Assembly: GCA_010405405.1 (NCBI GenBank)
Contig: MU004234.1
Coordinates: 1,515,275 to 1,579,274 of the forward strand
Source: Microthyrium microscopicum
Taxonomy: Eukaryota
Direction: 5' to 3'
Length of the DNA stretch: 64,000 nt
Shown here: in pieces, positions 83 to 63,849 of the stretch
Layout: each line of letters starts with the position of its first letter
How positions within the stretch are numbered: position 1 is the stretch's first letter
The notes under the pieces: generated by a model
What the model saw: only the letters and a program-made list of their open reading frames with translations
What the model was told of the DNA's origin: nothing
Databases searched by the model: none
Translations under genes and position numbers: made by a program

Positions 83-3000
83 GGCTCTAGCTGTACTTCG
101 TGGCGGGGGATACATGTTGAATGTGTTTGGCACCGGTCAAGGTACGAATAAGTCGAATAAGGAGGGAGATGGGAGATGAAGAGGCGGCAAGGGAGGTAGG
201 GATAGGACGCTGGGGTGGGCTATGACGGAGATAGAGTGAGTTGACGAGCCATTCCGAAGACGGAGACTTGTTGTAGATGGCTGCTCTCGAGATGGAAGAG
301 ACAAGAAAGGATCGCTCAAGGCCAGAGAAGCAAAGGGATCAGGCAGCAGTCATGATGGAGGTGGACAGAAAGTGATGTCTTGAAGTTGTTGCGGAGATAA
401 CCAGCGCCTCGACGAGCGAGCTATGTCAGGGTTCAAGCTATAACTAGGCTGAGCCGCAGGGACAAGTAGGCAATGCGGGGGTACGGGGGCTGAGAAAAGA
501 GAAATGGATGGAGTAGGAGGATGGCAATGGGCGGTGATGGAATGAGTGGTGAGAGGTAGATGTAGAAGATTTGGGGGATGAAGTTGGAGAATTGGAGAAA
601 GATAGAAAGGGCGATGAGCAATGATGGCAGGCAGAATGGCAGATGGACCTTTGATGGTGGATTTAATGGGGGAAGTGCAGCCAGCAACAGGACCATCCCT
701 GCAACCTCTAGCCGTTGCTTTAGTGAGTAGTCCTTGGTAGTCGTCTGCACAGTGCAAGTACCAGAGTCTACAGCAACCACTTCACCAATCCTAAATCCAA
801 CCAAGCATTTCCCACGATTCAAAAGTGATGCGAAGAGACGTCAACAAAGTGACGACGATGAGATGATCAGAGCTATTCGGTGTCACGCAGCACAACAGAA
901 AGGATCCCCACCAGACTCTACCATCAGCATCATTCAGTCACCCAAGTCTCAAGACTCAGACAAATTTAAAGTACGACTCATTCTAAGATATTACTATCTT
1001 GCTCCTATCTACCCTCGTGCTAGCCTCCTTTTTTGATACTACACTACCTAGAAGCAGTTGATGACTGTACCATTCAGAGCTGCAGCTGCCGCAATGCCGC
1101 GGTCATGGCCTGTCTCGGCGTTTACATGCTAAACTAGCCCAAGAAGAGACGAGCGATTGATCAAAAGACGTGATCATGCTTGATATCAGTTGCCGTGGCC
1201 TGAGTCAAGGGCCCCGAGGGTCCAGAGGGCTCCGATAATCCCATATCTGGGCCCTGAGCCTCCTCCATGTGACTCTTTGCTCTGTAGCCGACGGCCCTCT
1301 GCCACCACTAACTTCACACCTGATTACGGTGGCAACAACTGCTGCTTGTTGATACCATATCAATTCTTCAATGCTGCTCCTTATACAGCGCTTAAAAGCC
1401 AGCAATACTTGCCACTTTCTTTGGTCTGTAAGTTGGGCGAATCTTTACATAAGAGACACGGTGACCGGTTCGGTGTCCGATTAGGAACCGGCCTCAAGGC
1501 ATACTCTTATACTCCAAAGTCCAATGGCGACGAATGGATTATTGCATCTCAGGCTTCTTTTTTGGGGCCAGGCATTGGAGGAAGCCTGGTGAACCAGGAA
1601 CAGGCAGAAGAACGAGCATCGATTGGCATACGGATTCACAGGTCGTTGCAATCGAACAAGCACAAGGCGTACACAGTTTACAGCGCACAACGACAAATGC
1701 AGGCCAAAGGGCCAACAGTCATGAGGGTGGCAGCGTTGAACAAGGTCCCAGCCTTTTTGAATCGGGAAAATATGGAAACTGGCCGGTCCAGCTTCCGATT
1801 CGTCCTCGTGTCTCAACTCTTGATCCATACTGTCACTGCAACCGCATGCATGCTTTTACTCAACATTGAGATATCCCTTACAGGTATACTGACATTGTTA
1901 GCATCAAGTACAATGCCACAGATTAAGCTTTCTAGTAACGAGAAATTGTCAGGAAACAGATCAAGTCAGATCAATCAACCCGAGTCCCATCGGTTATTTT
2001 GCCCATGCTTCGACTCACAAGGCCCTATCGCTTACAATTGCTTGTTTAGTGGACTCTTGAGTGCGCGTAACTTCATCTATCATCATTTCAGACCGATCAA
2101 TCCGACGCATCTCTTCTCCCATCTGTCTGTACTTAACGGGAGCCCGCGCTCATGCACTTTGTAAAGCCGCATTGAGATCCCGATTGGTTTTGCATTCGTG
2201 CCCCTTTCCTGCCCTTTGTATTCTCTCTTGCGCTCTGAGAGAACACAACACCAAACAACTCATCCTGCATTGCAGAACTATAAGTCTATAGGCTGAGTCC
2301 TTTCTTCATTCGACTCTACATTCTTATCTTTCTGATACCGCAAAGGTGTTTGTATTGGCAATGCGTACTGTATACACAGTTCTCTTCAACTGTTGATGCT
2401 TCCACGTCCTCACCGACAATGCAGCGCGTCGCTCGGGGGGTCCAGCTGATGCCCCATGCGAGCTGTCAACAATAAACTACTGCAATTGCGACATGATACC
2501 CACTGCCCCATCGGATGAAACCTTTCTGTTATTACGTTCATTGGGACATATCGCAGTTGACGGGAGCCATTGCACTTCATGGTGAATATCGCACTCGCTG
2601 GGAGACATCGCACTTGGAGGATGCGTGCGATATCGACTTTGTCAACATATCGAGTCTACACCGTCCACCCCTTAATTCAACCTTTCACTAAGCTCCATCG
2701 GCTTTCAGCCGTATGATCATCCGTATTCTTTGCCCACTCATCTCGTCAATGAGAACCTCAATATCCATAAACCTGGCGACGGTTATTAGTGTATCTAAGA
2801 AGCAACAACAGCCGCACCCAATCCCATCTATACGGATAACATCCGTCTTGCCAACCAGGAAGTCACCGGCACACGACCAACACGATGGGTTTTCAGGCCC
2901 TGACCATCCCACCACCGCCAGATTAAATTGTCCAGATCGGTGGAATTTCCCATCCCCAGTATAGCATCATCTCAGAAAAAACGCACCAATCCCAAACAAG

Positions 3001-3698: not shown

Positions 3699-5964
3699 AT
3701 GACTTCACGCTCATTATCATGCTGGGCTTCGATAGCTTTGGCATGGCTTGTCATATCTGGATCTGCAACTCCCTTTCCACAGTTTGTGTTTTCACATCTA
3801 TTCCTAGACATCTGCTAATCAAAGGCCTCCATAGTACAACTCAGGATTTAGGAATATCTTCCAATGACAATGAAGAGTACGAATATATTGTCGTGGGCTC
3901 TGGCGCCGGTGGAGGACCGTAAGTTCAATACGCAGCTTATTCATGAATTGCCTGGGTCAATTTCGTGTGTTGCGGAATAGCAAGACACGACAGAGGTTCA
4001 CTGCAGTTCGACAAGTGATGACCACCGTTGTTCTAGCTATAGCGCAGTCATACTAACGTATCTCAAGATTGGCCTCCCGACTCGCGATGAATGGCAAAAA
4101 GGTTCTTCTCCTAGAAGCAGGCGATGATCAAGGAGAGAATCCAAACTCAATGATTCCATCACTACATCCATATTCCACTGAAGATCCTGCCATGTCATGG
4201 GACTTTTACGTACAGCACTACAAGGACCCTAAGACGGCCGCAAGAGACTCGAAAATGACATGGACTACACCCGAGGGCAAAACGTACATAGGATCCAATC
4301 CACCGGCAGGCTCTAAACAAAAAGGCATCTTCTATCCACGGTCTAGCACGCTTGGTGGCTGCACAGCACATAATGCCATGGTCAATGTCTACCCGACAAG
4401 TGAAGACTGGGATGACATTGCTCGAACTACGGGCGATTCGTCATGGAGCGCGCCCAATATGCGCAAGATCTATCAACGTATGGAGAAGTGTGCCTACTTG
4501 CCTAAAGGTGCTCCTGGTCATGGATTTGATGGCTGGTTGGGAACGAACTTGACAGACTCGTCGAATTCGGCTAGTGATACTAAGATTCTTCGCATTGGGT
4601 TGCAGTCTACCATTGCTATGGGCCAGGTGAAACCGGGCACTCTGCAAGAGCGTGGAGCAGACTTCAAGAAGGCATTGGCCGCGGATCTAAACAGCAATTC
4701 GACAAAGCGAGACTCGAGTGAAGGTGTTTTCCCTATCCCACTGGACATCGCCAACAATAAACGTACTGGATCTCGCGACTTCATCATGCAAGTCCTCAAT
4801 GCAAAGAACGCTGACGGCTCAAAGAAGTACCCGGGCTTTACACTCAAGCTCAATCATTTCGTTACAAAAGTCCTCTTCGCACCAACAAACTCCAGCTCAT
4901 CCACCAACTCAACATCCAAGCCACGCGCCGTCGGTGTCGAAGCCCTCGTCGGCGCGCATCTCTACGGTGCGAGCCCCAAATCCACCTCCTCCACCCGCTC
5001 CTCCGCTCAAAAGATCACCATTCGCGCATCCAAAGAAGTAATAATATCAACCGGCACATTCAACACGCCCCAACTCCTCATGCTCTCTGGCATAGGTCCC
5101 CGCGAGCATCTCGCCAAACACTCCATCCCACTCATCGCCCACTCCCCAGGCGTCGGCCGCAATCTCCAAGACCATTTCGAAATCGGCGTAACGCACACCA
5201 CCACCAGCGACTTTGCCTCCTCCGCCGCCTGCACATTCGCCCACCCACCAGCCAACCTAAGCTCCTCCACAGATCCCTGCATGCAAGCCTATCTCAAAGG
5301 TAGTGGACCCTACGCATCATCCAATGGCTTCCCCTTTGGCATCCTACAACGCACATCCGCCGCTGTAGATGCGCGCCCAGACGTGCTCGTTTTCGGCGGA
5401 CCGTCGAGATTTCATGGATATTATCCTGGGTATTCAGGACACGGGTACCAACATCGTTCCTGGACATGGGTCGTTCTCCGCGCCTTCACGACGAATCGCG
5501 CAGGTTATATTGAACTCGCTTCTTCCGATCCACTAACCACACCGATCATCAACACCGCTTTCTTTGCGGACGGGAACAAGACTGCGGACGCAATCGACAT
5601 CCGCGCCATGGCTGATGCCGTTCGACTAGCGCGAAATATATCCAACTCTGTACCCACGCTTTCACCTTCTGAGGGACCAACTGTATTGAATGAAGAGCTA
5701 CCAGGTGTAAGAGGCGGCGATGAGAAAGCAACCGAACAATTCATACGAGATGAGAGTTGGAGCCACCATGCCAGCGGAACAGCAGCGATAGGCAAGGATG
5801 GGGATGAGATGGCGGTCTTGGACAGTAAAATGAGAGTAAGAGGAGTCGATGGCCTGAGGGTGGTAGATGCGAGTGTATTTCCGAAGATACCAGGTTATTT
5901 CGTGGTGGTGCCGACGTATATGGTTGGGGAGAAGGCAGCAGATAGTATATTGACAGGAGCATAG
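3699..5964 (+). CDS. Secreted GMC (AA3) FAD oxidoreductase; exons 3699-3781, 3835-3918, 4068-5964
   Basis: Spliced N-terminus MTSRSLSCWASIALAWLVISGSATPFP is signal-peptide-like. FAD motif YIVVGSGAGGGPLASRLA is rebuilt across intron 3919-4067; also LGGCTAHN, TPQLLMLSGIGP, GVGRNLQDH, catalytic HHASGT, and RVRGVDGLRVVDAS. Confidence 0.93.
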
Positions 5965-9435: not shown

Positions 9436-10288
9436 GGTTTCAGGAGAAAGGATAGTCACTAAGACGGCGGATCAATTCGGTTTAATCGATGATGGATTCA
9501 CAATCACATCTAAAAGCAAGAATGATGTTGACGCGGGGCGAGGACTAAGTCGCGTGTGACAGCTACTATAAGAGAATGAAGCCGCCAAGTTCCCACAGAC
9601 AATTCCTTCCAATTAGACACCGCGAACCCGAGCAGAATCTTTCTTCCTGCGATCCTTGCGAAAGAGACCAAGAAGAAGGCAAGATGTGACTTGCGCCAAA
9701 AGAAATGGAGCCACTGAACAACCTAACTAAAACACCGCAATAGCTTGGCGATCGGAGTTGTTGAGGCTTCGTTACGACGAGCGCACGGTCACGATATTAC
9801 CAATCGAGATGAAAAGATGGTGGTGATGGATTCAGGGTGCAGTTATTGATGAATTGACACGGTGAGAGGTGGGATGGATGAGAAGTGTGAAGAAAGTGGA
9901 GAGCTTCAAGCTTCAGAAAACGAGGTTGACTCCGCATGGCACGTGATGCAATTGCCTCTGGTCTGAAAGCTCGGTTGTTTTCTCTAGAGTCTTGGCAAGA
10001 AAGAGCGCACGGCCAAACTCGAGCCAAGATCTTTGGAGAATCCGAATCAAGTTAAGCGTCCATGCTCGGGCTTAGCCACGTGCCGTTATTTCCGACGCTA
10101 ACCGGTTACATCAACAAGCGTCGATACAGTTCGAGCCAAATCGACATTGAAGCCATGCTTTGAGATGGACCATCATTATCTACTCCACCACATTCTACGC
10201 TCGACACCACCGCTTCTACTCGCCCTTTGTGCTTAAACATGGGCTATCTGAACCCACCAGCCAACGTGCCGTCCATGACCTTCACGAA

Positions 10289-13111
10289 ATGACAGCTTCC
10301 ACTTCCAATAGTTCGCCGATTGGACCATCGCAACATCTGCATACGCCCTGGTCCTCGCGAGATCAGACTCCAACCGCAGTAGACGCTGATTCTGTATCCA
10401 AATCTGGAGACGATCAGTCAGATCTCCATGTTCTGGACAATGGCCATACTGCGATAACGCCACACGAGGCTGTTCAGGCCCATAGTAGTCTGAAATTAAA
10501 ACTTAATACATCCCCGTCTAGTTCTCACAATCCCGAATCCCAAATATCACCGAGTGCCCTGTCACCTGAGAAATCCAATGGCCGTCCTGGTGCTCCGAAT
10601 TACGTGGAACTTCCAAAGATTTCTCTCACAGACTCTACAAATAAACTAGCCAGAAAACTCTCCCCAAAGCAGATCCACGAGCTCACCTCTGTTCCACTCT
10701 CACCAACTCTCACTGCCTCGCTTTCTCCTCCGCTCCCTCCTTTAACTGCCCCACTTCACCAACTAAACGAAAATCTGGAGAACGAATACGAGATTCGTCA
10801 TGAATCTGGTGATGGTATCAGGCAAAAGGAAAGAATAAACGGGATACATCGCGATGAAAGTCCGACCAGGAGAAGGCCTTTCAAGGAGGTACAAGGACCA
10901 ACTCTGGAGAAAGAAATGAAGCTTCTACCAAATGGTAATCGTCCACCTCCCACACGTACGGTGTCAACTCCTCCACTAGTTGGCAGGAAAAGGTCTACAA
11001 AGCAAGAGTCGAAGCGGAGGAGGCAATCGCCAAAGCCTCTGGAATTTTCTGCCGAGAACCGTTCGTCCAACAATGGCTCAATACTCAAAGCGAAAACTCC
11101 AAATTTCGACGCCACACCAACTCCTGCCACTTCTATTCCCCCCTTATCTCTTCCTGTCTATCTACAGCTTGAACTAGATGCTCAACACTCTCCGGCCTTT
11201 GAGATACCATTTGAATCGTCCGCGATCAAGTTTGAGCGATTACGAGATTTTCTTCTTCTCCCTATGCCTTTGGAACATATGCTGTGGTTTGGAACATTCG
11301 CATGTATTGATGCCTGGCTCTACGTATTCACCATATTGCCACTTCGGTTCTGCAAGGCCTCATGGATATTGATACGATGGTGGATGGGCAATGCCTGGAA
11401 AGAAACACATGACATGATCGAGTTTGTTTACCTGGGAGTTGGTCGATTGTGGAGAAGAAGACGTGAGGGGGATGCCTTGTCTGAACCGTCCTCCAGAGAA
11501 AGTTCACGACCTAGAGGTGCCTCACTTTCGAATGGCGCGGTCTCCAGATCCTCGGAAACGCCAGGCGTCATAAGACCTGGACCCGAACCTCGAAGGAAGC
11601 ATGACATCAAGAAACAATTTCGTCACAGAAGAACTAGATCCACGCCTTCACTGCTTCTACCTACCCACAAGGCCGATTTACTTCGTGGCTTTTTAGTATG
11701 TGTAAGCTCACTCATTCTACTTCAACTTGACCCAAGTCGAATGTACCACAACATCCGAGGTCAATCAGCCATCAAGCTTTACGTTATCTATAACGGCCTG
11801 GAAGTCGGAGATCGTCTTCTTTCTGCGCTCGGACAGGACATTCTCGAGTGTCTGTTTTCATCCGAAGTTCTTGAGCGCAACTCGGATGGACGAAGTAAAA
11901 TCATCAGACCTACATACATGTTTCTAATTGCTCTGGCCTACAATGTGGCTCATACAGCAGCACTGCTCTACCAGGTCATTACCCTCAATGTGGCAGTCAA
12001 TTCCTATTCTAACGCATTGCTGACTTTGCTTCTCTCAAATCAATTCGTTGAGATCAAAGGTGCCGTCTTCAAGAAAGTGGAGAAAGACAATTTGTTCCAG
12101 CTCACTTGCGCAGATGTGGTAGAGCGATTCCAACTTTGGCTAATGCTACTCATCATTGCGATGCGAAATATGGTTGAAGTTGGAGGCATCAGTATCAGCA
12201 TTAGCAATACTTTCCAGGCCGCTCCAAACAACGCAAATGCCACCAATGTCCCTTTCAGCACTTCAAGCATATGGCCAACGAGCTTTACAATTTTCCCGCA
12301 GTTCACGGGACAGATTCTAGGGCCCTTTGTCATTGTTCTCGGTAGCGAAATGGTGGTAGATTGGATCAAGCACGCCTATATCAGCAAATTCAATGACACC
12401 AAGCCTAAGCTATATGGAAGATTCCTCGATGTTTTGGCCAAGGACTATTATACTCATGCATTCGGAGACCAGAATTTAATGAAACGAATTGGATTACCTA
12501 CACTGCCTCTAGCCTGTCTCTTTATCAGGACGACCATTCAGACTTATCACATGTTCCTCGCAACTCATATGCCTCTTCCGCTGCCCAGCACCGCAACTTC
12601 TTTGTCGATGGAGTCAGCGAGCGAAGCCAGCACTCCGGCAGCCACGGCAGCACTTGCACACGTGGATCAGCTGTTCCGTCGCGCACTGGGACGCTCTGGT
12701 TACCCGCTTGACCCATCAGCGCCAGCACCATTGTTTTCAGTCTACTTCATGGACGACCTGATCGCGTTTGCTCTTCTATTCCTCGTTTGCCTAGGCGCAT
12801 TTCTGCTCTTGCTAGCAGCGAAGCTAGTCCTCGGCATGATTATGCTGAGATGGGCTCGCTCGCGCTACAAGGGCATGAAAGAACGCACACACGGCCGAAT
12901 TGAAGCTGGTGGCACAAGGCTCGGAGTATCGGCAATGGTCGAGGTGGATGACGAGAAGCGTCGGATGCTGTATGCGGATGACCCGGATGGCCTGGTGAGA
13001 TACTATGATAAACAAGAGAAGATTCGTCGAGACAAAGAAAGGGAAAAGGAGAAGGGACTTGACCTCAATCGTGTAAGAAGATACGATATGGTGGCCAAGC
13101 GGATTTGGTGA
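10289..13111 (+). CDS. EMP65: Emp65/TAPT1 (DUF747) ER multi-pass membrane protein
   Basis: Single long ORF; first ATG at 10289. Family motifs MYHNIRGQSAIKLYVIYN, LNVAVNSYSNALLTLLLSNQFVEIKGAVFKK, ADVVERFQ, VDWIKHAYISKFN, C-terminal RYDMVAKRIW. Confidence 0.9.
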   Translation: MTASTSNSSPIGPSQHLHTPWSSRDQTPTAVDADSVSKSGDDQSDLHVLDNGHTAITPHEAVQAHSSLKLKLNTSPSSSHNPESQISPSALSPEKSNGRPGAPNYVELPKISLTDSTNKLARKLSPKQIHELTSVPLSPTLTASLSPPLPPLTAPLHQLNENLENEYEIRHESGDGIRQKERINGIHRDESPTRRRPFKEVQGPTLEKEMKLLPNGNRPPPTRTVSTPPLVGRKRSTKQESKRRRQSPKPLEFSAENRSSNNGSILKAKTPNFDATPTPATSIPPLSLPVYLQLELDAQHSPAFEIPFESSAIKFERLRDFLLLPMPLEHMLWFGTFACIDAWLYVFTILPLRFCKASWILIRWWMGNAWKETHDMIEFVYLGVGRLWRRRREGDALSEPSSRESSRPRGASLSNGAVSRSSETPGVIRPGPEPRRKHDIKKQFRHRRTRSTPSLLLPTHKADLLRGFLVCVSSLILLQLDPSRMYHNIRGQSAIKLYVIYNGLEVGDRLLSALGQDILECLFSSEVLERNSDGRSKIIRPTYMFLIALAYNVAHTAALLYQVITLNVAVNSYSNALLTLLLSNQFVEIKGAVFKKVEKDNLFQLTCADVVERFQLWLMLLIIAMRNMVEVGGISISISNTFQAAPNNANATNVPFSTSSIWPTSFTIFPQFTGQILGPFVIVLGSEMVVDWIKHAYISKFNDTKPKLYGRFLDVLAKDYYTHAFGDQNLMKRIGLPTLPLACLFIRTTIQTYHMFLATHMPLPLPSTATSLSMESASEASTPAATAALAHVDQLFRRALGRSGYPLDPSAPAPLFSVYFMDDLIAFALLFLVCLGAFLLLLAAKLVLGMIMLRWARSRYKGMKERTHGRIEAGGTRLGVSAMVEVDDEKRRMLYADDPDGLVRYYDKQEKIRRDKEREKEKGLDLNRVRRYDMVAKRIW

Positions 13112-13507
13112 TCATTGATTTTTGTTAACTTCAGCATTCAGCATAGCGCATGGCGGCAACGCAGCTTGAGATAAACTCAGTTTTATCTATTATATTGTCT
13201 TGCATTCCATATTATTTTCACTTTACTCAAGCTAACCATCCATTTTAGTCATATTTCAAGTTGTGACAACTTCAACCCCTGAGCCGACTTCCGCCAAGAT
13301 TCACTCCCCAACACTACAAATTATTCCTCGGCTGCGCAACAACAAGCAATTGATATTGTTCTCGTCTGGTAAACCTATTATGGAGGCTATCCGAACCCGT
13401 CAACCTTCGGGAAAGTTCTGTGGTTGCGAACTCATTGTTCTCATCTCCTCAGGGGAGACAATACTAAGCAGCCTCATTTTGCCAGGGACACAATACTAAC
13501 CACCACC

Positions 13508-13592
13508 ACAAAGTACAACAATCTTTATACCAAGCTTCAAAGATAATTCCCAAATGATCGCCCCTATCAAAAACCCTTTCTCATCCTCAAAG
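13508..13592 (+). promoter_or_regulatory. Cluster of putative HMG-box (MAT1-2-1-type) binding motifs upstream of the pheromone ORF
   Basis: ACAAAG 13508-13513, AACAAT 13517-13522, TTCAAAG 13536-13542 and CAAAG 13588-13592 lie within 85 bp, 160-245 bp upstream of the ATG. These are short motifs in C/A-rich DNA. Confidence 0.4.
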
Positions 13593-13707
13593 AACTGTCC
13601 ACGTTCCAACCCATCACCATCGCACTACTTAATCCTTCGATTTCAACCACCATTTTGAAAAAGCCACCCACGAACACATTCATTCTACACAACCATAACA
13701 AACACTT

Positions 13708-13746
13708 TCCAACTCCAACCCAACCCAACTCAACCCAACCAACACC
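13708..13746 (+). repeat. Imperfect (CCAAC)n low-complexity tract in the pheromone-gene leader
   Basis: tccaactccaacccaacccaactcaacccaaccaacacc just upstream of atcaaaATG. Confidence 0.6.
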
Positions 13747-13752
13747 ATCAAA

Positions 13753-13989
13753 ATGATCTCCATCCCAGCTACCGCATCTCCCGTCAACTTCAACTGTTGG
13801 GGCGGTGGAAACGGACAGAACTGCACTGTCATGAAGACCGAGACTGAAGCCGCTCCAGTCGACCGCAACGGCTGCGGTGGTGGAAACGGCCAAAACTGCA
13901 CCGTCATGAAGGTCGAAGACGAAGCAGGTCAACCAATCGACCAAAACGGCCTTGGAGGTGGCAACGGCCAAAACTGCACCGTCATGTAA
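13753..13989 (+). CDS. Multi-repeat a-factor-like (CaaX, farnesylated) mating pheromone precursor, ppg2/mfa-type
   Basis: 78 aa, strong CAAA-ATG context, no signal peptide, three GGGNGQNCTVM units, terminal CaaX (CTVM-stop). All five variable nucleotide positions among the 11-codon cores are synonymous. Confidence 0.85.
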   Translation: MISIPATASPVNFNCWGGGNGQNCTVMKTETEAAPVDRNGCGGGNGQNCTVMKVEDEAGQPIDQNGLGGGNGQNCTVM

Positions 13990-14792
13990 ATCACTCCTCT
14001 GATTTAGCATGTTCGTCTGTGTTTTTGTTTCTTGGCATTAGCGAAGGTCTCTTGATATGAGAGGCGTCGTTTGTGAATTATCTTCCTATCACACGCCCAA
14101 TCGGTCTGCGGATACATCATTCCCGCATGGCGGTTTTTCTTGCTTCACTTCTTGTTGGTGAGTACGACTTCTTCGACGGACGCGTTGGGAGGGACGGCTT
14201 GCTAGTTTTTGGGAGTTGATGCTGGAGTGTTTCTTCTTTGGAGCATTCTGGCGTTTTCTTTCTTGGATATACCTATTCAGTTACTGTATATATCTACTCC
14301 TCGGTTCTGTGCTTTGGTACTACCGGGATGAATTATACTTGCTTTATGCAATCTTTCTTCTTCTTTTAACTGTGTGTGAATGCGGAATCTTCGCCAGTGT
14401 GAGTTGAAGCTCGTTAGAGGTCATGTTGATACTTCTTCACGTCCATAACCGTCCTTAGCTTGACTGCTGTGGTTATCATGTATTGATTCAACTGTGATTC
14501 TATCGACCCTAGACTCCAACTTAAGAAGGATCAAACGCAAATGACTATAGTAAGCAGATGTGCCTGACTGCAAGGCAGGGTCACGTCTTACCCGCCGTGT
14601 TACAAGGTAAGCAAATAATGGTGCCCGCGGGTCCAACAACAGTGTATCTGATGTATGTTTGTCAGATAGAAAATGTTTAAACAACTAAAAAGAATTTCTG
14701 CCCGTTCGAAGGTTTAAATGACACCCAGTTCTTCCCTAAAACGCCCCTGTTGCTTGCCCTTCTCAACTCTACCTACTTGTAGGTACCTTCTA

Positions 14793-15578
14793 CTAGTAGT
14801 GTAAGACTTGATCTGGCCTTGGGTGCGAAATCACCAGAAGATGAGGATTCTTTTCCAAGCCAAGGACCATATCTTGGTTATGACGACGACTGAGATTGAA
14901 AGGTTAGCCAACTCGGATCGGGGTTTTTTTGGTGACAGTTTTGGTAATAAGAACACGGAGGAGAAGGCTACGACTTACTCAGGTATGCCAGCCTTATCCA
15001 TCCTATTTCTCAAAGCCCCCTGACCGCATCCAATCGGTGTCTGCATAGTTGCCATCCAATAGTAGCCACTTGGTGCTATCTCTACCGCGTTATTGTCAGT
15101 GTTAAAGCCAGCGCTGAAGGTGAAGTTTGTGCCCAAGCACCAGTGGTCAGATATGGCGTCTTTGAGTTTAGAGCCATCGAGGCCTAAGCTCTCCTCCCAG
15201 TTCCAGCAATTGGTATCATGATGGGTGGGACAGTATTTCTCAACTCCAACGATATAGTGCCTGTTGAGAACTCCGAAATTGCTAGAGGATACTAATGTCA
15301 GAGGTGGTCTTCAACTTCATGAGAATGCGGAGAGTTTACTGTTTACGATTGCATGTCGCAGAAACCTTTGCATTGCAGTTCTCATCAAATCCGGAAACAT
15401 GTGGGAGATGATGCATCTGCCCAAGGTGCCGATAAGGATCTTTTGGAACAGGCAGCGTGTTGCGAGATGCGATGTGTTTGCTCGCTGTGAGAGCACCTGC
15501 TGAGTCCGCTCGATTCAGTGCAAGAGCAATGACCGGCGTAATGGCGACAAGCCTTGAAACGACTAAGAATAGTTTCAT
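14793..15578 (-). CDS. Small secreted Cys-containing protein (effector-like); exons 15578-15340, 15281-14979, 14889-14793 (or stop at 14975 if intron 2 is retained)
   Basis: Signal-like MKLFLVVSRLVAITPVIALA. Intron 15339-15282 (GTAAAC..CTGAC..TAG) joins to an open exon NFGVLNRHYIVGVEKYCPTHHDTNCWNW...LKDAISDHWCLGTNFTF...WMATMQTPIGCGQGAL. A second intron-like segment reads GTAAGT..GCTAAC..CAG. Confidence 0.7.
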
Positions 15579-16919
15579 TGCTCGAAAGTTATGGTGATAT
15601 TCGATAATTTGGATGTAGAGTGTGGTCTTGAAGTGAGGGTCAGACTCGGTAAGTGAAGTGTTCAGTAAAATTGCTTTCCACAGTCAGGATACATGCCGAT
15701 TCAAGTGTTAAATATCTTTCTGGAAAATACCAGTTGCAAACTTGCCTAGGTGTACCATCCTACGTAAGGTAGTGATTCATGGTTTACCAATGATCAAGAG
15801 CTTTTGAGTCAAATTTTAAATACCATTTCTATGGTCCACTAGACGTTAAACTCATCTTGTACTTATATGGATAAGTCCTTTCTCATCTTGATACTCTATT
15901 GCATACTAGTAGGTACTTCCGTCATAAGCGGCACCGAATTTTGAGAATGCACTCAACTTGACTTTGATTACTCTAGTACAGGCTGAACAGAAACGTTTCC
16001 CGACTGCTCCTAGGTAAGTGTATAAAATACCAGTAAGCATGGAAATCTGAAAAGGAGGATCCTCCAGGTAACGTCCGGCCCAGAGAAACAGAGTTTGGTC
16101 ATTTGTACCAAATTTTCGATGTTCAGCTTGATAAGCGGCAACACCACAGTCTACTACTCTCAGAGCAACTTTAAATACCAGTATAGGTTATTTGGAGTTA
16201 GCGGCAGTTGGAGCAGCGCAATGTATAACCATCATTTACAGAGGAACCTAGTAGTTACTTAACGAAACCTGCTCTGATCTGGCGTACGACATTGAAACGT
16301 CATTCTCGCGTCACACTCCGTGAAACAACCTACCTACCTAAGTACTATAAAAGCATATTGCTGAATCAGGATGTGGCAAACCTTGATTCCAGCTACTTAC
16401 CTGGTCCATCAATTCTAGCTATTTGATGTACACGATAAGTACTATCTTTTGCTTAGGTAAAGTATTTAAGCGTCCAATTATAGCCTTTACCAGCTTGCCT
16501 GTGTGCTTGTCAAGTTGTCAACATTTTGATCCAGATTACGTTTGTGTAACGGGGAAGGTCATTCTTGCCATCTGGATGTCACGATGTCACGATGTGGGGA
16601 AACTTACATCAAATCCAGTCACCACTCCACCCAACTGGCATGACGACACAGCTAGATTCGGCATAAGTTTTGATTTCAAGCTTCGTTGGAGAGGAAACTA
16701 TGCACTTGATAACCTGACATCAACATGGCTTCCAAGACATTCAGACTGAGCTCCACCTATCTTCTCACCGTCCTAAACCGATACCCCGCATGCCAATTGG
16801 CCAAATGCTGTGATACCAAACATCAGCTTATCAGTCCACCCAACAACTCCTTCTCCTCTTACATCTCGAATTCGAGAAGAGCAATTCATACTTCACTACC
16901 TCTGAACTCAACCTCCATA

Positions 16920-18021
16920 ATGACTTCCGCTGCCGTCGAGCAGGACAATCTATTCATTCCAGTATGTCAGACGGTTGATTCAACTTCACGCCCGCTTATC
17001 TTTTCATAGCTTATTGACTTTGCCCCCTTCCGGGGTGGCTCTGCCGCCGACAAAAAAGCCGTTGCCAACGACATCGTCAATGGCTTTCGTAACGCGGGCT
17101 TCATCTACTTGAAAAATCATGGCATTTCACCTGCCGCGGTGGCAAGTGTATTCGGCCAAAGTGCAAAGTTCTTTCAACTGCCCCAAGACCAAAAGGACAA
17201 ATTGGCCTGGTATTCAGCAGAAGCAAACCGTGGTTATACAGCCCATGGACGTGAGAAAGTGAGCATGGCGGACGTGGAGGATGTGGATGCGCTTCGGGAA
17301 TCGAATCCGGATCTGAAAGAGTCACTGGAGATTGGACGGGATGATGAGCCACAGTTTCCAAATATGTGGCCGCCGCAAGAGGGTGAGAGTCAGTGGCCGA
17401 CGGAGTTTAGGAAAGAGACCATGGGATTTTTTGAGCAGTGTAAGGAGATGCATCGGCTGGTTATGAGCTCGATTGCGGTCGGGCTGGGTATTGGTGAAAC
17501 GTGGTTTGATGGCTTTACGAGTGATGGGGATAATACGCTGCGTTTGTTACATTACCCTGCAGTGAGTAGGGAAGTGTTCGAGAAGAACGTGGGACAGGTG
17601 AGAGCTGGAGAGCATACGGATTATGGTTTGTGTCATCAATTCTTATATTGGATCCGACTAACGTATTGGACCAGGCTCTATGACACTGCTATTCCAGGAC
17701 GCCAGGGGTGGTTTGCAAGTCGAGTCCCCAAATGGAAACTTTGTCGATGCAACACCAATTCCCGATACTATCGTCGTGAATGCTGGAGACTTGATGGCGC
17801 GATGGTCAAACGACTACATTAAGAGCACAAAGCATCGTGTGGTTGAGCCACCCAACAAAACCTCTGAATATCCAGCTCGATATTCAATCGCGTACTTTTG
17901 CAATCCAAATTTTACCAGCAAGATTGAGGCCATTCCTGGAACCGTTGCTGAAGGGGTTCAGAAATATGAGCCGATCATCAGTGGCGAGTATCTGGTACAG
18001 AGACTGACTGCAACTTATTAG
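16920..18021 (+). CDS. Thymine-7-hydroxylase (thymine dioxygenase), 2OG-Fe(II) oxygenase; introns 16962-17009, 17626-17674
   Basis: IPLIDF, AGFIYLKNH, EANRGY, DLKESLEIGRDDEP, DNTLRLLHYP, iron ligands HTD...H (KSTKHRVV), RYSIAYF, and end YLVQRLTATY. Closely resembles Neurospora T7H as I recall it. Confidence 0.88.
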
Positions 18022-35825: not shown

Positions 35826-37123
35826 CTATGGCAATTCAGGAGCTTCTTCTAACGGCGACGAGACAGTGAGCTCAAACTCGTCACTGCTTGCGGCCTCAGA
35901 GAAGAGAATCGATACATACGCATAATGTGCTGAAAAAGGATGGTAGATGATTTGTGTTTGTGAATTCCAGTTGCAGCCAGCAGGGTGAACTTTTCGCATT
36001 CGATAGCCAAGGTCCCACATATCAGGAGATCTAAGCAGGAACTGTTTTGCGCCTGTCAGATAAAACTGGGTAGTATGTTGGTGAATGTAGATTGCTACTG
36101 GTTTGGTGAGATTCATCTTTCTCATATCTATATGATGAAGTGCAATGCCAACTCTTTCATAGACATCTGCCTCCTTCGTTGGAGCTATAGGGATCGCAAG
36201 GTAATTGAGCGGATCTCGGTCATCTCGACAGTTGGAGACTCGGTATATCGTTCCTTTCAGGCTTCTAGGCTCTACGTGCGAGCCGAGCAAAGGCAGTGAA
36301 ATAAGTAGTCCATTTTTGGTCATGTTATAGTGAGATGCGGCCAAACGAGACGCTACCGAGCGTACTTTAAAGACATGCGCTTTGCCACGCTCTGGACCCT
36401 CACTAGATTGGGGCTGACAAGAATATCTTGGTCTATCCGAGTGGCTTGACTTATATACTCTGCAGGATGGATCCGGGAACCGATATATTTGTCATTCTTG
36501 TCTCGAAACTCGACTGTCTTTGGTGCGAGGAGCTCTTGGAGTGTCCAGCCCTTTGTAAACCAGCGACTTTTGACAAAATTATGCTCCCAGCGAAGCTCGC
36601 CAAAGACTCTCTCAAGGCCTTTGTGGGTATAAACCTCGAGATAAGCGTAGCATTTCATTGATTGTTGGTGACAACAAAGCATGGAGTTTATCGCTTCACT
36701 GGAACATGTCAGTTCATGAATGAAATAGGAGAAAGCCGCTTCGAAGCCATATCCCTGGCATGTTCTCGAAGTACTATAGAAGATCGTCATTGACCTTAGT
36801 TCAGCGCTCGAAATCTTGTTGATACAGCACGTATCGATCCACATATACCTGATGCCGTCCTCCTCTGCCCAGGAGCATGCTTTACGGATATTCTCATATC
36901 CAGTCTTTGGTTTTACGTCCTTCGTTCCAGCATCGAGTATCTGGCTTGGCAATAAGTAACTTCCAAGGCATCGCAATGAACCCTCCTGTAGGCGAGAAAG
37001 CAGGCACATCTCTTGATAACTGACTTCCTCAGTTTCCCAAGCATGTGAGAGGATGGCATAGCCGGGAGGTTTTCCGTGAAAGAATTCTTCCAGCTCCAAG
37101 GTCTTGACGTCTACAAGACGCAT
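35826..37123 (-). pseudogene. HET-domain (heterokaryon incompatibility) gene with an internal deletion and frameshift
   Basis: YAILSHAW, MWIDTCCINK, SAEL|SEAINSM (intron 36794-36699), SRWFTKGWTLQELLAP, then KRMS followed by a premature TAG at 36353. The downstream YNMTKNGL segment is in another frame. Confidence 0.75.
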
Positions 37124-37651
37124 GGTTGAAGGCCATGTTGATCGCGCCGAAATATTGTCGAAGTTATCGGGTCGTTATCAGGTCGTTATCAAGCGAGTTG
37201 TAATCATGCTTAAGTGGGTTACACGGCAAGATTCTGCGGGCTCGCTCACAATTTTGGGAATAAATGGTTTCCACTGTTGCATTGAAGTAGGAGTTCAAGA
37301 AGGAAGGAGCCACCCGAGATCGATGAAACACCAAAGCTTGGACGTTATGTCTCGTGGTTCGCGTGGCATGTCATGCTAAATTCAACCTCATCTCTGAAGT
37401 CTGGTGGATTCCAACATGAAAGTATGAACATGAAGCATTTATCTAGTCTTGTGCTGATGACGAAATTGGAATAAATATCATATATTACATTAGAGGAGGA
37501 TATCTCGCTAGGCCATGCAAGTTCATGGCCATTTTTTACTTTGCTCGTAATGAGTATCTAAGGTATCTCTCGCGTTATACGCAGTCTTGCGCAGTAATAA
37601 TCAAAGCCACGCTAACCACCCGCACCCTTCAATTTTGTCAAAAAAAATCCT

Positions 37652-57100: not shown

Positions 57101-59108
57101 ACAAATCAAAGACGCAGGCAGCTGGTCAAGTATCGAAGGTTTTCTACGACGCCAATATGCTCTACATTTAAAACAGATCCTCGCACTCACTCCAGCTTCA
57201 TCGACCAGGTACGCAATCAAGAAGAAGCACTCATATCCGATGACAAGTGCGATATGCAGGAAACTAATGCAATAATAGAAGTCCTCTAGATTTTTGGCTT
57301 CGTGGGGGCACGCCAATAGGCAATGCTGTTCGCCGATCAGCTAAGGATTTACAGAATTCTCGATTGGACAGTTTGACCAAAACCGAAAGAAGCCAGCTGT
57401 ATGAGTACTGGTAAGATCCCCATCACATCACCTGGAGATGCGATCACATCCACATGAGCTGTGCTAACGATAGAAAAATAGGATCTCTGTCATCAAAGCG
57501 GATCCCTTCGAGAAATTGAGACCTAAAATTCAATCCTGGATCGAAAGTCAAGGACAGCTTGAAGAGGTTCGCATTTCGGAACAGGTCCGGACGCTGCAGA
57601 AAGCTTCAGTGATTGGCGTGACTAGCTCAGGTCTCGCTCGAAATCTCAATCTACTGAACTGCCTGGACTCGAAGGTTGTCTTGATGGAAGAAGCAGGCGA
57701 ACTTCTAGAGGCCCATTCTGTCACTTCGTTAATACCAACTGTTGAGCATGCGATCTTAATTGGAGGTAAATACCTTCGTTCAAATGAGAAGAGAGAGCTA
57801 TGCTAACAACTCCAGATCACCTTCAATTACGCGGTCAAGTAAACAACTATAGCTTATCGTCAGAGTCATCCCATGGGCGTCAGTACGCTCTCGATGTTTC
57901 TCTATTTGAACGGCTCGTTGCGCCTCTCAGTACCGAGCGAGCTCTGGTTCTGCCGTTCACTACACTCGAGGTCCAGCGTCGTATGCATCCTTCAATTTCG
58001 GACTTGGTAAGATTCTTCACCTGTCAGATTACAGGCATAGCCAGTCAACGGGTCGAAGTCAACAAGTGGCTCACTCCCATCAACTATGTTGTCTCCCATT
58101 GTACTTTTGGACCAAAAGGTGCTTTGATTCCTAGCGCAGTCGCTGAAGAGTCGAGGATTTTATCATATAAGATAACGTTCCTGATGGGAGTGTGCTACAT
58201 GGTTACATCGACCCTTTGATTGGTCATGCAACGTGATGGCAGAATATATCTTTCATCATCGAATGCTAACGTATCAGATTCGACAATCGCTCTATCCAAA
58301 GCTTTTGGATGAAAGTAGCGTGGTAGGCGCATATCCAGCGGTCAAAGGGATGGATAGACGACTATTCTGGCTCGATCATCATCAACCTGAAGAGGGCGCT
58401 GACGGAAGCGATACGCTTTCTAATTCCCGAAGCAATCAATACGAAGTCGAGAAGGTCTCGACTCTGGTAGCGTGAGTAACCTCGCCTCTTTCGAGACGAT
58501 GGACTCTTCTTTGTTGCTAATAATACCACAGACATCTCGTCAAGAATGGGTATTCCACAGGACAGAAGTTGGCAATATTGACTCCTTATGTCCGTCAACT
58601 GCAGCTCTTACGTCGTGCACTTTCTCGTCATTTTGAGGTGGCTTTGTCAGAGAAGGATCAAGCTGAAATGGAAAAACAAGGTACGGTCTAATTTTGAGAA
58701 GCTACTGTGGCTTCTGTGACGCTCTTTGCATGCAAAGCTCACTATATCAAATCTTGCTAACAAACGCCAGGTCTCGCACAAGACGCACCGGTGCCACAGA
58801 TGTCCAATCTCAAGCTGAACAAAGACGGAAAGGCAACACTCCTAGATCCCATTCGCGTTGCCACGGTCGACAATTTTCAAGGCGAAGAGGCCGATGTGAT
58901 TGTGATTTCACTTGTTCGATCGAACGCACAGCGCAACTGTGGTTTCTTGCGGACCTCCAACCGTATCAACGTCTTACTTTCGAGAGCAAGACATGGTTGC
59001 TATCTAATCGGTAACGCAGCGACTGCTGAATCGGTTCCTATGTGGGCGACTACCATTCGGCTCCTGAAGAAGGGCAGCAACTTTGGACAAGCCTTGCCAT
59101 ACTGTTAA
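54129..59108 (+). CDS. ZNFX1-like (UPF1-type SF1B) RNA helicase lacking the C-terminal NFX1 zinc fingers; many introns
   Basis: RHDND, DRQFRLLRED, IQGPPG|TGKS, CYTNHALDQ, MEEAGE, LIG|DHLQL, SLFERL, QRRMHP, TVDNFQGEE, NRINVLLSRA; stops at GQALPYC. Confidence 0.88.
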
Positions 59109-59452: not shown

Positions 59453-62400
59453 ATGAGTTTCTCTAAAGGATTTTCGTCCAAGATGTCGGCACCGAAAAAC
59501 AAAGATCTTCTGCTACCTTTCAGAAGCCTTCGACGTAAATTGTCCAGAAGTCGCAGCAAATCGCCATCTGGCCCATTTGCTTCGCAACCGCCTACAGCTC
59601 CATATGCTTCCCTGCCAACTACATCTGCAGCTGGATCGCAACCACCCACATCACTTTCTACCTCGCAACCAGCTGCTGTACCATCGTCTTCACGGCCAAA
59701 TGAGACAGGTGTACGAGAACGTGATACTGACGGAAGTCTCCTGCTGGAGCAAGCACTAGACAGATTATCGAAAGATGAAAGAAAGACGATTCAGCAATGG
59801 ACAAACAAGAATACGGACTTGGCCTTTGAGGAGGCCTACAAGGCTGCTGAAGCCGCTGAGACAGTATGTGAGGACAAACAATGGTCTTTTACCATTGGAG
59901 ATCGTACCGTAAAAGCGAGGTAGAATTTGAAGCAGCGGCCAAAGTGTTAGGAATAGTCACTGAATACATACAGGAGTGTAGCCGACAACATCCTTCAATG
60001 GCTAGATCGATTCAAACCTATTGGTGACATTATGGCCAACGCACAGCCTATCTTTGCTGGTCTTCCGTGGGCGGGAATTCGCTTGCTACTCGAGGTGGGC
60101 GACCAATGAACGGATCCAAGTTGCAAGTCTGATTGCTTTTAGGTTGCAACTTCAGAGCATCGTCTTATGCGCGACATTGCTAATGGCCTTGATTTCGCTC
60201 TATATCACGGAAACAGGTTGAAGGTTTACGTCAGCTACCTCCATAGAATTCCCGCTGGCCAGGCTCGGAACAATTTCGAGTCTCGACTTGTTATTCTCTA
60301 CGCGAACATACTAAGTAAGTGAATCGTTGGAGCTCACGGCTCCAGATAGTGAATCAAAGCCGCAAGACATTACCGAAGAGTATGCTAACAGAAAATAGGA
60401 TTTCTATCTCAAGCTATTCAGCTCCAGGAAGAACATACAGCTATACGATTAGTCGGAGCTTTATGGAAAGAGTCAGATGTACGAAAGTTTGAGGAAGACT
60501 GCCGAAAACACGCTTCTGATGTGGAGAGGGAAGCATCAAATTGCGATCGGGAAATCTTGCTAAGTCTACAAGAGGATCTCGCACGTTTAGACGAACTCAA
60601 ATCCTCACTCGATCTCATTGGCAACACAGTTTCTGATATTTGGACTACTATGAAGGATAACGAAAAGCATGAAGTGTTGATGTGGACATCTCCAATTGCC
60701 CACGCCGATCAACATAACGTAGCTATAAAAGGGCACGTCGAGAATACAGGTGACTGGATCTTCCAACACGAGTCTTACAAAGCCTGGGCTACGGACTCTT
60801 CTTCCAGTATGCTTTGGCTACACGGTGGCGGTAATGAGAAAATTCTCCTCTCTTCGATGTAGTCTGACCTTGCCTAGTTGGAGCCGGGAAAACGAAACTG
60901 ATGGCTCATATAATCGAAAATCATCAGAGTAGTCTGCCATCAGACGAAGGTCTCGCCTACTTCTACTGTAACCGCAACGAAGATTTGCGACGCGACCCTG
61001 ATGTGGTTCTGCGAAGCTTCGTAAAACAGCTGTCAAGTACTCGTGATGGTCGCTCAGCGAATGTTCACAGCGCCTTGGCGAATAAATACAAGGAAAAAAG
61101 AAGCGCGTCTTCGCAGCTTTCGACTGACGAGTGTGAAGATCTACTTCAGAAATTAGCAAAAGCATACAGTAAAACTACTCTGATTCTGGATGCATTAGAT
61201 GAGTGCGAGCAACACTCTAGATTTGGTAAGCTTCCCTTCGGCACTGCACTTAGCACTTCAATTCAAACTGGTTCCAGTGCGCCGATAAATCCTGGACATC
61301 AGGCTGCGAGATTCTGACTAGTTCAAGGTCTACTGAATGTTTTGGATCGGCTGACTACAATTCAATCCCACGTGAAAGTTTTGGTCTCTAGTCGTCCAGA
61401 CAGCGGTATCACACACCGTCTCGAACGAAAGACTAATCTTGGGATAAACGCAACCAACAATGAGCATGATATTGAAAAGTATGTGCGCTTCAGACTTGAA
61501 GCAGACGAACGAGAAAGACGGAAGCCTTTCTCCGAAAAATTGCGTAGAGAAATCATCGCGACAGTGTTCAAGAAGAGCGAGGGCATGTATGTTGAGCCAC
61601 GAATCTATCTCAAAACAAGAACCAATCCGCTTACCCGCTTTGCTTCTAGGTTTCAATGGGCAGTCCTACAAATCAATCAATTACTGGATATGGAGAGAGA
61701 GGCAGATGTCCGAGCGAGGTTGGGAAGGCTTCCAGATGACTTAACTGCCACATACCATGAGATCTACAAAAAGATTACTCGTCAGCCTGGCAGCAAACCG
61801 CTCATTGCCAAGAGAGCGTTCCAGTGGATTTGTTCGGTGCCGCAGCCTCTTGTGGCAGATCAAATCGTTGCAGCAGTTTGTCAAGATGCTAACAGTCAAG
61901 AATTAAAGGAGACCGATATCGACATTGAGTTTGTGATTTCAGCTTGTCAAAATTTGATCAGACAAGATGAGCAGAGCATTATGAGGCTGTCACATCTTTC
62001 CGTTCGCGAGTACTTTGAACGAGAACACACTGAATTGCTTCGGGAGGGCGTACGTGAGTCGATATCTGTTGTTTTGAATTTGCTTCAACATCCGGAATCC
62101 CGGTCTCTCCAACACAAGAGTTCACTCGACGCAAGCAAGAAGGCTCTCACTGCACTTGTTGTTTATGGTCGTAAATATTGGCCCGAGATGTACCGCTCTG
62201 CCGAATCTCTCGGCAGCAGCAACATCGCTCAGTCTGCGCTTGAGTTTCTGGGATCAACTGGAATACCAGGAATAGCCTATTGGGAATGGTATACCATTTT
62301 CAAGGAGGACAATATAGTCGATGTTCAAGATTTTCAATTGTTATTCGCCGGAGCGCCCCAGGATTGGACACAATATTTCGAGCACGTAGAAGAAAATGGG

Positions 62401-63849
62401 CATATATTATTTCCAATCTGCTACTTGGGCCTTGGCACAGCACTGGAAAGATGGTGCGCCCAGTCCGGAGTCGATGCAACATTCGATACGGACCTCAAGA
62501 ATTCTGAGGGCTTTGATCTACTATCTCTCGCAGTGTTACAGAACCATCCATCAACTGTGGAACAGCTACTTGTAAAAGGGGCAGATGTGAACACTCAGCA
62601 TGCTGGCACGTTCGGCAGCGCGCTCGCCCTCGCTGCAACGAGAGGATTCGTCGATATTGTGGTTTTACTTTTGCAACATGGAGCACTGCCTAACGAAAAG
62701 CTGGGAGGACATAGGTACGGAAGCGCTCTTGTAGCCGCAGCTAGCCACGGCAGACTCGAGATCGTGCGAATCCTTCTCGATAAAGGCGCAGATCCTCACC
62801 TGCAAATCGAGAATGGGGAGTATGGTTGCGCCCTAGTAGCCGCTTGTGCCCGCCATGATGGTGCCGATATCATAGAAATACTGCTGAACTGCGGTGTGGA
62901 CATCAACGCACAGCCTAGGGATCAGTTTAGCCCGCTAATGACTGCAATATCACGTGGAAATATAGCACTCGTCAAGCTATTGATTGAGCGTGGAGCAGAT
63001 GTCAATCTGCAAGCTTGTCACAAGTATCATGGTAGCGCCTTGCAAATTGCCGCTGCGGGCGATCAACTGCCCGTACTTCAGTTACTGCTCGACAAAGGGG
63101 CAGAAGTCGATATGCCGCTTGTTAGCGGATCTATGGGCAGTCCGTTGGCCGCCGCAGCCAGCAATGGCCGTTTCGATCATGTAAAACTACTTCTGCAGCG
63201 AGGTGCAGATATCAACGCCCACCTCAATGGCAAGTATGGGAGCGCGCTGGCGGCTGTGGTGTCAGAAGGCGAGCCAGAGTCCGTGAAGTTGTTACTCGAC
63301 CTCGGCGCAGATGTCAATGCACGCCTTAATGGCGATTTTGGCAGCGCACTGGCGGCTGCAGCATACCATGGCAATATGAAGTCCTTGAAGATGCTGCTGA
63401 GGCACGAGGCAGATCCACATGCAATACTGAACGGGAAGTTTGGCAGCGCGCTAGCTGCAGCAGCCTACAAATGTAGAGTTAGGAGCGTGAAGCTACTTCT
63501 TGACCTCGGCGTGGATGCTAAAGCAAGTCTTAGTGGACAATATGGCAATGCTCTTGCGGCCGTGGCCCATGACGGGGAGAGCGATGAGAACTTCGCAGAA
63601 TGTATGCAAGGCTGGAAGTGGGAGAGAAGAGTTTTGAACGAAGACTCGCGCAGAGTAGCGTTGAAGAGGCTCGAAGCTGATAAGATCGCTCGATTGTTAA
63701 GAGAGCATGGTGCAGTTGGTGGGATGTATGACTTCGAACTAGACACCGAGGAGATGCAATCAGTCAAGGTGTTCAGCGAATGGCGTAGTCAGTTGGAGTC
63801 GGACCAGGATTTAGAGTTTGATGAGGAAGTAGATTGGATGAGGAGGTAG
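59453..63849 (+). CDS. Fungal NLR: helical NWD-type N-terminal domain + NACHT + ankyrin repeats; several introns (including in-frame 61587-61649)
   Basis: WLDRFK..GD..AGLPWAGIRLLL; ENTGDW; P-loop WLHGG|VGAGKT; AYFYC; Walker B LILDALDEC; VLVSSRP; GM|FQWA; about 10 ankyrin repeats of the GSALAAAA..G..VKLLL..GADVN type. Confidence 0.92.

Follow-up and report, generated by a model that had tools for sequence, protein, structure and literature searches.

The short open reading frame (ORF) described here, 13753..13989 of a 64-kb stretch of Microthyrium microscopicum DNA (the whole stretch analysed is called the window), resembles in build the precursors of fungal pheromones of the a-factor type, some of which carry more than one CaaX box. 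HPP1 of Trichoderma reesei, as described by Schmoll et al. 2010 (PMC3068285), features three (L/I)GC(T/S)VM copies, the last of which is the CaaX or 'CPAX' box, and two Kex2 sites. Male fertility depends on it, and the h-type class is reported only from Hypocreales. Kex2 (dibasic) sites are not present in all h-type candidates, and are not essential in HPP1, according to that text. The a-factor genes of Huntiella and other Ceratocystidaceae encode several repeats, each with its own CpaX, and multi-CpaX a-factors are found also in Fusarium (PMC10182648, PMC13037118). A putative a-factor of Leotiomycetes (BCIN_13g03330 family) is described by Wilson et al. 2023 (PMC10569646) as a protein of 45-64 amino acids (aa) with a single CaaX, mostly CTVM, and usually GY near the C-terminus, a corresponding GY motif being found in both Leotiomycete and Sordariomycete a-factors. 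Before this putative gene, the same report states, no a-factor gene had been found in filamentous ascomycetes outside Sordariomycetes.

Dothideomycetes, the class of M. microscopicum, are the largest ascomycete class, and include many crop pathogens and many species without a known sexual stage. No published report of an a-factor-type gene in this class was found in a search outside of which most subscription journals lie, so that absence in print is not proven. By its architecture, 13753..13989 is a conserved small gene of the a-factor/multi-CaaX precursor kind, coming from a class with none described. Its transcription is probably abundant. With a probability of about 0.6, this small Dothideomycete gene would encode a leaderless cytosolic polyprotein made of three a-factor-type (farnesylated) mating pheromone units.

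Organization of the ORF

The ORF was identified by scanning the 64-kb window. It runs from ATG to TAA on the + strand and encodes 78 aa plus stop, reading MISIPATAS-PVNFNCWGGGNGQNCTVM-KTETEAA-PVDRNGCGGGNGQNCTVM-KVEDEAGQ-PIDQNGLGGGNGQNCTVM-stop. Its parts are the following:

13753..13989 (+): three-unit CaaX precursor ORF, from the ORF scan; homologues P0122, P0123 and P0126
13780..13833 (+): unit 1, aa 10-27, PVNFNCWGGGNGQNCTVM, internal CaaX followed by K28
13834..13854 (+): boundary K and acidic spacer 1, aa 28-34, KTETEAA; in the family, K or R follows each of the 8 internal units
13855..13908 (+): unit 2, aa 35-52, PVDRNGCGGGNGQNCTVM, internal CaaX followed by K53
13909..13932 (+): boundary K and acidic spacer 2, aa 53-60, KVEDEAGQ
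13933..13986 (+): unit 3, aa 61-78, PIDQNGLGGGNGQNCTVM, terminal CaaX immediately before TAA; I62V variant in sequencing runs

The product carries three C-T-V-M motifs, the last being the C-terminal CaaX (CTVM-TAA), and the distance from unit start to Cys is 12 residues in all three units. At DNA level the organization emerges as a tandem repeat with a 78-nt period (13804..13986, 2.4 copies, 81% matches; Tandem Repeats Finder). The first-pass annotation had described three units separated by acidic spacers and devoid of dibasic Kex2 sites; re-reading of 13753..13989 gave exactly the same product, and no [KR][KR] site was found by scanning the ORF. By hydropathy, no extended hydrophobic segment is present at the N-terminus, where nine-residue Kyte-Doolittle means reach 1.18 at most. 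The window contains 35 ORFs of 12-200 aa running from M to CxxX-stop, and 13753..13989 is the only one to hold more than one CaaX-like motif.

Comparison with known precursors

Size (<=100 aa) and a CaaX directly before the stop, by which a-factor-type precursors are recognized, are both found in the 78-aa ORF. The same is true of the features used in published work, namely a terminal CaaX/CpaX and a CaaX belonging to each repeat; the signal-peptide criterion is judged here from hydropathy only. The ORF is like HPP1 in being a small leaderless protein with three motif copies ending in C-(T/S)-V-M, the last of which is the C-terminus. It differs in that it has no dibasic site, and features instead a single K/R after each internal CaaX and an acidic spacer. 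Residues before the Cys are Q-N rather than (L/I)G, and the host is a Dothideomycete and not a member of Hypocreales; HPP1 has been compared by motif description only. No named Hypocreales protein was returned by the word, phmmer and profile searches for relatives.

As described, the Huntiella and Ceratocystidaceae a-factors are similarly short proteins with near-identical repeats, each ending in its own CpaX, plus a terminal one, and several genes per genome are possible. These are Sordariomycetes, in contrast, their repeats are 12 residues long, the descriptions consulted mention no monobasic residue joined to an acidic spacer, and the comparison is by description only. In the rhodotorucine A precursors of the basidiomycete Rhodosporidium toruloides, the subject of work attributed to Akada et al. 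in 1989, a lysine is said to close each internal spacer, and units reportedly abut without a long acidic spacer; a cut after the basic residue followed by trimming was reportedly proposed. The spacer-closing lysine, if so, would parallel the K/R found after the internal CaaX of the 78-aa ORF. The enzymes maturing rhodotorucine A are unknown, according to the discussion of Schmoll et al. (PMC3068285).

The putative Leotiomycete a-factor is likewise, as described, an unannotated small gene with, most often, a CTVM end, a Ser/Thr-containing N-terminus and expression detectable outside mating. On the same description, the ORF of the window differs from it in being 78 aa long, in having three CaaX, and in lacking both GY and an aromatic residue beside the Cys. 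The a-factor of S. cerevisiae is a 12-residue peptide. Canonical a-factors (S. cerevisiae MFA1/2; Sordariomycete mfa-1/ppg2) share with the ORF a cytosolic precursor, a C-terminal CaaX and the predicted mature length of 12 residues, whereas they release one pheromone per precursor and have no detectable sequence homology to it. V-N-F-N in unit 1 recalls N-F-N-G-Y before the CaaX of a Chaetomium globosum candidate, a likeness of three residues only. Since neither the Kex2 feature of HPP1 nor the size, single CaaX and GY of the Leotiomycete family are found, the ORF is placed in the general multi-CaaX kind, and in neither of these families.

Homologues

Among 5.8 billion protein clusters searched by word index, no relatives of 42-137 aa were found, and the 78-aa ORF itself is thus unannotated in that collection. 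Among contigs of JGI metagenomes, 437 pattern matches to the ORF were found, none of which was confirmed by tblastn. A phmmer search of 1.84 billion representatives gave five matches with E <=0.001. The alignment with P0122 (81 aa, E 8.4e-7) extends to the C-terminal end of that protein; P0123 (125 aa) has an E value of 1.9e-6. A third protein, P0126 (85 aa, E 1.9e-20), was recovered with a profile of three proteins, being one of 3 with E <=10 among 19 candidates. P0122 and P0126 are JGI "hypothetical proteins", encoded by contigs of 1933 and 1174 nt, respectively. P0123 belongs to Microthyrium microscopicum (Dothideomycetes, Microthyriales), is listed by NCBI as a "hypothetical protein", and is most likely a paralogue located in the same assembly, beyond the window; no second copy of the three-unit gene was found within the window. 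P0121 (823 aa) and P0124 (652 aa), two long repeat proteins, do not end in a CaaX, and were taken as compositional matches. P0125 (1550 aa, 14 stretches) was set aside on length and pattern alone.

The 78-aa ORF and the three homologues have the terminal CaaX architecture in common. Each of the four proteins consists of three units, and identity ranges from 35 to 47%. All 12 units are closed by C-x-[V/I]-M (CTVM in 7, CAIM in 2, CTIM, CSVM and CNVM in one each). After the K or R that immediately follows every internal unit comes one of T, S and V, then an acidic segment, and basic residues are rare elsewhere (0-2 per protein). The acidic spacers are 6-10 residues long. P-[V/I]-[N/D] opens 9 of the 12 units, and 11-13 residues separate it from the Cys. 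Dibasic sites are missing from the units of the homologues too.

Residues 27-50 of P0123 align with the in-frame translation of the CA-rich leader located upstream of the 78-aa ORF (comparison with 13681..13947), and an internal Met-Ile-Ser of P0123 matches the start of the ORF. The annotated 125-aa model of P0123 probably starts too far upstream, its first 50 residues being leader. Not only the architecture but also the leader sequence thus seems to be common to the two genes. Six residues identical to the P0123 C-terminus (D-W-S-C-N-V-M) are encoded at 58194..58238 (+) of the window; the match continues into coding sequence without a stop, and is accordingly a chance match within another reading frame.

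Coding potential

The three 33-nt stretches encoding the GGGNGQNCTVM cores differ at 5 nucleotide sites. All five differences fall at third codon positions and are synonymous in the + frame. An antisense ORF of 147 aa, 13567..14010 (-), overlaps the 78-aa ORF, and in its frame 4 of the 5 differences alter a residue. Differences that are synonymous on the + strand, and mostly not on the other, argue for selection on the peptide encoded by the + frame, and against a recent DNA repeat. GC3 is 0.63 and C-ending codons make up 52% in the 78-aa ORF, vs 0.47 and 25% in the neighbouring TAPT1 gene. No Pfam family was assigned to either the 78-aa or the antisense 147-aa product, no Rfam match was found at 13000..14600, and the ESM Atlas returned no usable match for the 78-aa product. 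We conclude that 13753..13989 is a real gene, and not a chance ORF; we consider it very probable that the gene genuinely encodes a precursor of CaaX peptides.

RNA-library contigs

Parts of 13680..14060 were found in seven runs of a sequence-run index, five of which are recorded as RNA. Contigs of four runs (X2, X3, X4, X7) have been aligned to 12600..15000; X1, X5 and X6 (share 0.21 for X5 and X6) were left out. The contigs map as follows:

13674..14297 (strand not given): longest RNA-library contig, 624 nt, soil metatranscriptome X2, gap-free and collinear
13678..13833: contig of freshwater metatranscriptome X3
13806..13956: contig of soil metatranscriptome X4
13691..13870 and 13848..14110: contigs of X7, a run of unrecorded kind ("organism B")

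Three metatranscriptome runs (X2, X3 and X4, from three studies) thus have contigs on the 78-aa ORF. By these RNA-library contigs the gene is transcribed and intronless, the X2 contig being collinear with the DNA. If the X2 contig represents a + strand mRNA, leader and trailer would measure about 79 and about 308 nt, respectively. Its start and that of the X3 contig come from two studies and are 4 nt apart, which points weakly to a 5' end near 13674. No contig of the four runs lies on 12600..13673 or 14298..15000; because the runs were chosen for containing the ORF, missing cover of the flanks says nothing about the neighbours.

The X2 contig differs from the window at 9 positions. The 79-nt leader is free of differences, the 237-nt ORF has 2, and the other 7 are located within the 308 nt past the stop. 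One of the two ORF changes, 13936 A>G, is found in X2, X7 and X4, and results in I62V, turning the PID of unit 3 into PVD, as in unit 2. The other, 13971 A>G, is synonymous and found in X2. Core and CaaX are unchanged by the variants of X2, X7 and X4. X2 and X7 have 7 of the 9 differences in common, and the I62V change recurs in three runs; a closely related lineage or allele seems to be widespread in the sampled environments.

Proposed maturation

By analogy with characterized pheromones, we infer for the 78-aa product a mating role, prenylation, processing, export and activation of a Ste3-type receptor. The precursor would remain in the cytosol. Farnesyltransferase requires a free C-terminal CaaX, and internal units must therefore first be freed at the M-K/R junction. 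An endoprotease might cut at this monobasic boundary, either on the N-terminal side of the K/R, or after it, the basic residue being then trimmed. M16A-type metalloproteases related to Axl1/Ste23 can cut N-terminal to basic residues in other systems. The cut would turn each internal C-T-V-M into a free C-terminal CaaX; the last unit already has one. Each unit would then be farnesylated on Cys, lose -TVM, and be carboxymethylated. Acidic spacer and N-terminal part would be removed by a cut probably located after the conserved P-[V/I]-[N/D], Asn being the predicted N-terminal protease site in a yeast pheromone screen. Three 12-residue peptides ending in farnesyl-Cys are predicted to result, FNCWGGGNGQNC, RNGCGGGNGQNC and QNGLGGGNGQNC, which might be exported by a Ste6-type ABC transporter and reach the partner's Ste3-type receptor, on which they would act. 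Since the internal CaaX-K/R junctions are strictly conserved, use of all three units seems likely.

Alternative explanations

The first-pass annotation had taken 13753..13989 as the a-factor-type pheromone gene of the fungus. The assignment to this type draws support from the short ORF, the CTVM end, the missing dibasic sites, the selection on the cores, the RNA-library contigs and the three homologues. The definite article fared less well, as a paralogue with different predicted peptides, P0123, appears in the same assembly, and the gene is therefore not necessarily the sole or principal pheromone gene.

Several observations weigh against a polyprotein of mating pheromones. The homologues found are only three, and the one that is named, P0123, is probably a paralogue rather than an orthologue. 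In all three homologues the Cys is preceded, at a distance of 2-3 positions, by an aromatic residue (G-W/Y/F-x-C, W-Q-L-C, Y-W-S-C), to which the GY motif of Leotiomycete and Sordariomycete a-factors corresponds. The 78-aa ORF lacks it: its predicted peptides are Gly/Asn-rich, and Gln occupies the position of the aromatic residue in all three units. Units 1 and 2 of the ORF also contain an extra Cys. The contigs reveal neither strand nor level, RNA libraries can contain DNA, and the strands are not told apart by the two ORF variants, each of which is synonymous also when read in the antisense frame. [quoted passage not shown] No Ste12-type TGAAACA was found in the 641-nt upstream region.

Synteny is also of no support. 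The TAPT1/EMP65 gene located upstream of the ORF had been proposed as a landmark for finding the same ORF in related genomes, and 16 metagenome loci encoding TAPT1 relatives (35-77% identity) were analysed, 9 of which extend at least 900 nt downstream of the gene. None of the 16 revealed a multi-CaaX ORF in a six-frame scan for M-to-CxxX-stop ORFs, and the expected linkage was not borne out. In tblastn searches of the same loci with the four proteins of the family, no match went below E 0.28. In these relatives the gene is either unlinked to TAPT1 or absent. Two short ORFs were noticed at one of the loci, L006, 4-5 kb upstream of the TAPT1 relative: 1053-1109 (+) encodes 18 aa ending in CIIM, and 1787-1828 (+) encodes 13 Ser/Thr-rich aa ending in CSVV. 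Both may be due to chance or correspond to single-unit CaaX peptides.

The alternative that survives best, still unlikely, is that of a prenylated precursor in which only the C-terminal unit is matured, internal CaaX being relics of tandem duplication that are never exposed. The need of farnesyltransferase for a free C-terminus speaks for it, and no protease for internal release is known. Relics should decay, in contrast, and all 8 internal C-x-[V/I]-M are kept, each with its K/R, in four proteins that have diverged to 35-47% identity; in the ORF, nothing but synonymous changes separates the internal cores from the terminal one, and the encoded peptide is the same. How multi-CaaX precursors are cut is described as unresolved for both HPP1, where Kex2 sites are dispensable, and Huntiella (PMC3068285, PMC10182648, PMC13037118), and the strictly conserved monobasic boundary provides a handle on this question.

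The product might also be a farnesylated secreted signal whose main role is not mating, but, for instance, the signalling of density or germination, or other autocrine or interspecies signalling. Contigs come from soil and freshwater metatranscriptomes, which are probably not mating cultures, and a paralogue with different peptides exists. The Huntiella literature (PMC10182648, PMC13037118) considers that pheromone may have been co-opted for quorum sensing, as documented in Fusarium oxysporum, and the Leotiomycete candidate is expressed regardless of mating type (PMC10569646). Against this stands the fact that characterized fungal peptides of such build are all mating pheromones, and that accepted pheromone genes are likewise expressed outside mating; a principal role other than mating is regarded as rather improbable.

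Near-identical repeated cores alternating with spacers are seen also in precursors of non-prenylated ribosomal natural products (ribosomally synthesized and post-translationally modified peptides, RiPPs), either of the Kex2-processed dikaritin type or of a new one, and genes for a GMC oxidoreductase (4069..5964) and a 2OG-dioxygenase-like protein (17010..17822) are located within 10 kb of the ORF. Of the features by which dikaritin-type precursors are recognized (signal peptide, KR-flanked cores, UstYa/DUF3328 neighbours) none was found: both the hydrophobic leader and the KR/RR site are missing, and a Pfam scan of 23 neighbouring ORFs, outside of which small or intron-split genes fall, revealed neither UstYa/DUF3328 nor a tyrosinase or methyltransferase. 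Moreover, the motif is exactly C-terminal in all four proteins, a position that a RiPP core need not have. A RiPP precursor is very improbable.

That 13753..13989 is not a gene in the + frame, being either tandemly repeated DNA that happens to contain an ORF or the complement of a true 147-aa product, is hardly credible: the antisense frame stays open, accommodates both natural variants synonymously, and the strand is not visible from the contigs, but inter-unit differences are synonymous in the + frame and for 4 of 5 non-synonymous in the other, homologues were retrieved with the + product and one of them is an annotated gene, the ATG lies in the context CAAA-ATG preceded by a CA-rich leader, and neither a Pfam family for the antisense product nor an Rfam match for the region was found.

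The candidate family, being defined by sequence, may serve as a query (three units, C-x-[V/I]-M then K/R, P-V-N unit start) for Dothideomycete genomes, and would allow the prediction of synthetic lipopeptides, tests of Ste3 receptors and tests of cryptic sexuality. A broader proposal, conceivable at odds somewhat below even, is that the family is the long-missing a-factor-type pheromone of Dothideomycetes, cut at 'CaaX-K/R' boundaries by a route undescribed in ascomycetes. Each transcript would yield three different farnesylated dodecapeptides, and at least two paralogues per genome would encode unrelated peptide sets, so that in place of one pheromone the fungus would have a combinatorial lipopeptide signal.

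Upstream region and neighbouring genes

The following elements were found upstream of the ORF:

13709..13740 (+): CCAAC-type pentamer repeat in the CA-rich leader, which ends in CAAA-ATG
13355..13522: five clustered ACAAT sites (HMG-box-type core), among them two occurrences of ACAATACTAA (13458 and 13490, 32 nt apart); motif match only
13374..13383: CC(A/T)6GG box; motif match only

HMG-box mating-type proteins and Mcm1 regulate pheromone genes in other fungi. The 641 nt upstream of the ORF contain 6 ACAAT cores, vs 1.56 expected from the density in the window, and just 0.7% of 200-nt windows hold at least 4 of them; the density of CC(W)6GG implies about 2 such boxes in 64 kb. The ACAAT cluster and the CC(A/T)6GG box sit 150-320 nt upstream of the first base covered by RNA contigs. 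On these motif matches only, 13355..13522 is offered as a lead, a candidate regulatory region.

The gene preceding the ORF, 10160..13111 (+), encodes a membrane protein of the DUF747/TAPT1/EMP65 type (Pfam E 1e-125). Its best named relatives are from Dothideomycetes and share 53-55% identity only, a level that fits a sparsely sampled lineage. No mating genes or RiPP-tailoring families were found among the window ORFs scanned against Pfam. Genes of the window have ordinary housekeeping or metabolic functions, and encode, in addition to the GMC oxidoreductase, TAPT1 and 2OG-dioxygenase-like proteins, SPOC/TFIIS, SET, AhpC-TSA_2 and CBS proteins. Others encode PP2C, BAR/PH, alpha-galactosidase, HET, purine-cytosine permease, rhomboid, PLD and ankyrin proteins. 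The region 14300..17000, about 2.7 kb past the transcript, contains only short ORFs (<=120 aa stop to stop), and forms a gene-poor gap before 17010..17822. The HET domain ORF 36353..37174 (-) and the large ankyrin-repeat ORF 61318..63849 (+) are typical non-self-recognition-type genes, unrelated to the CaaX gene.

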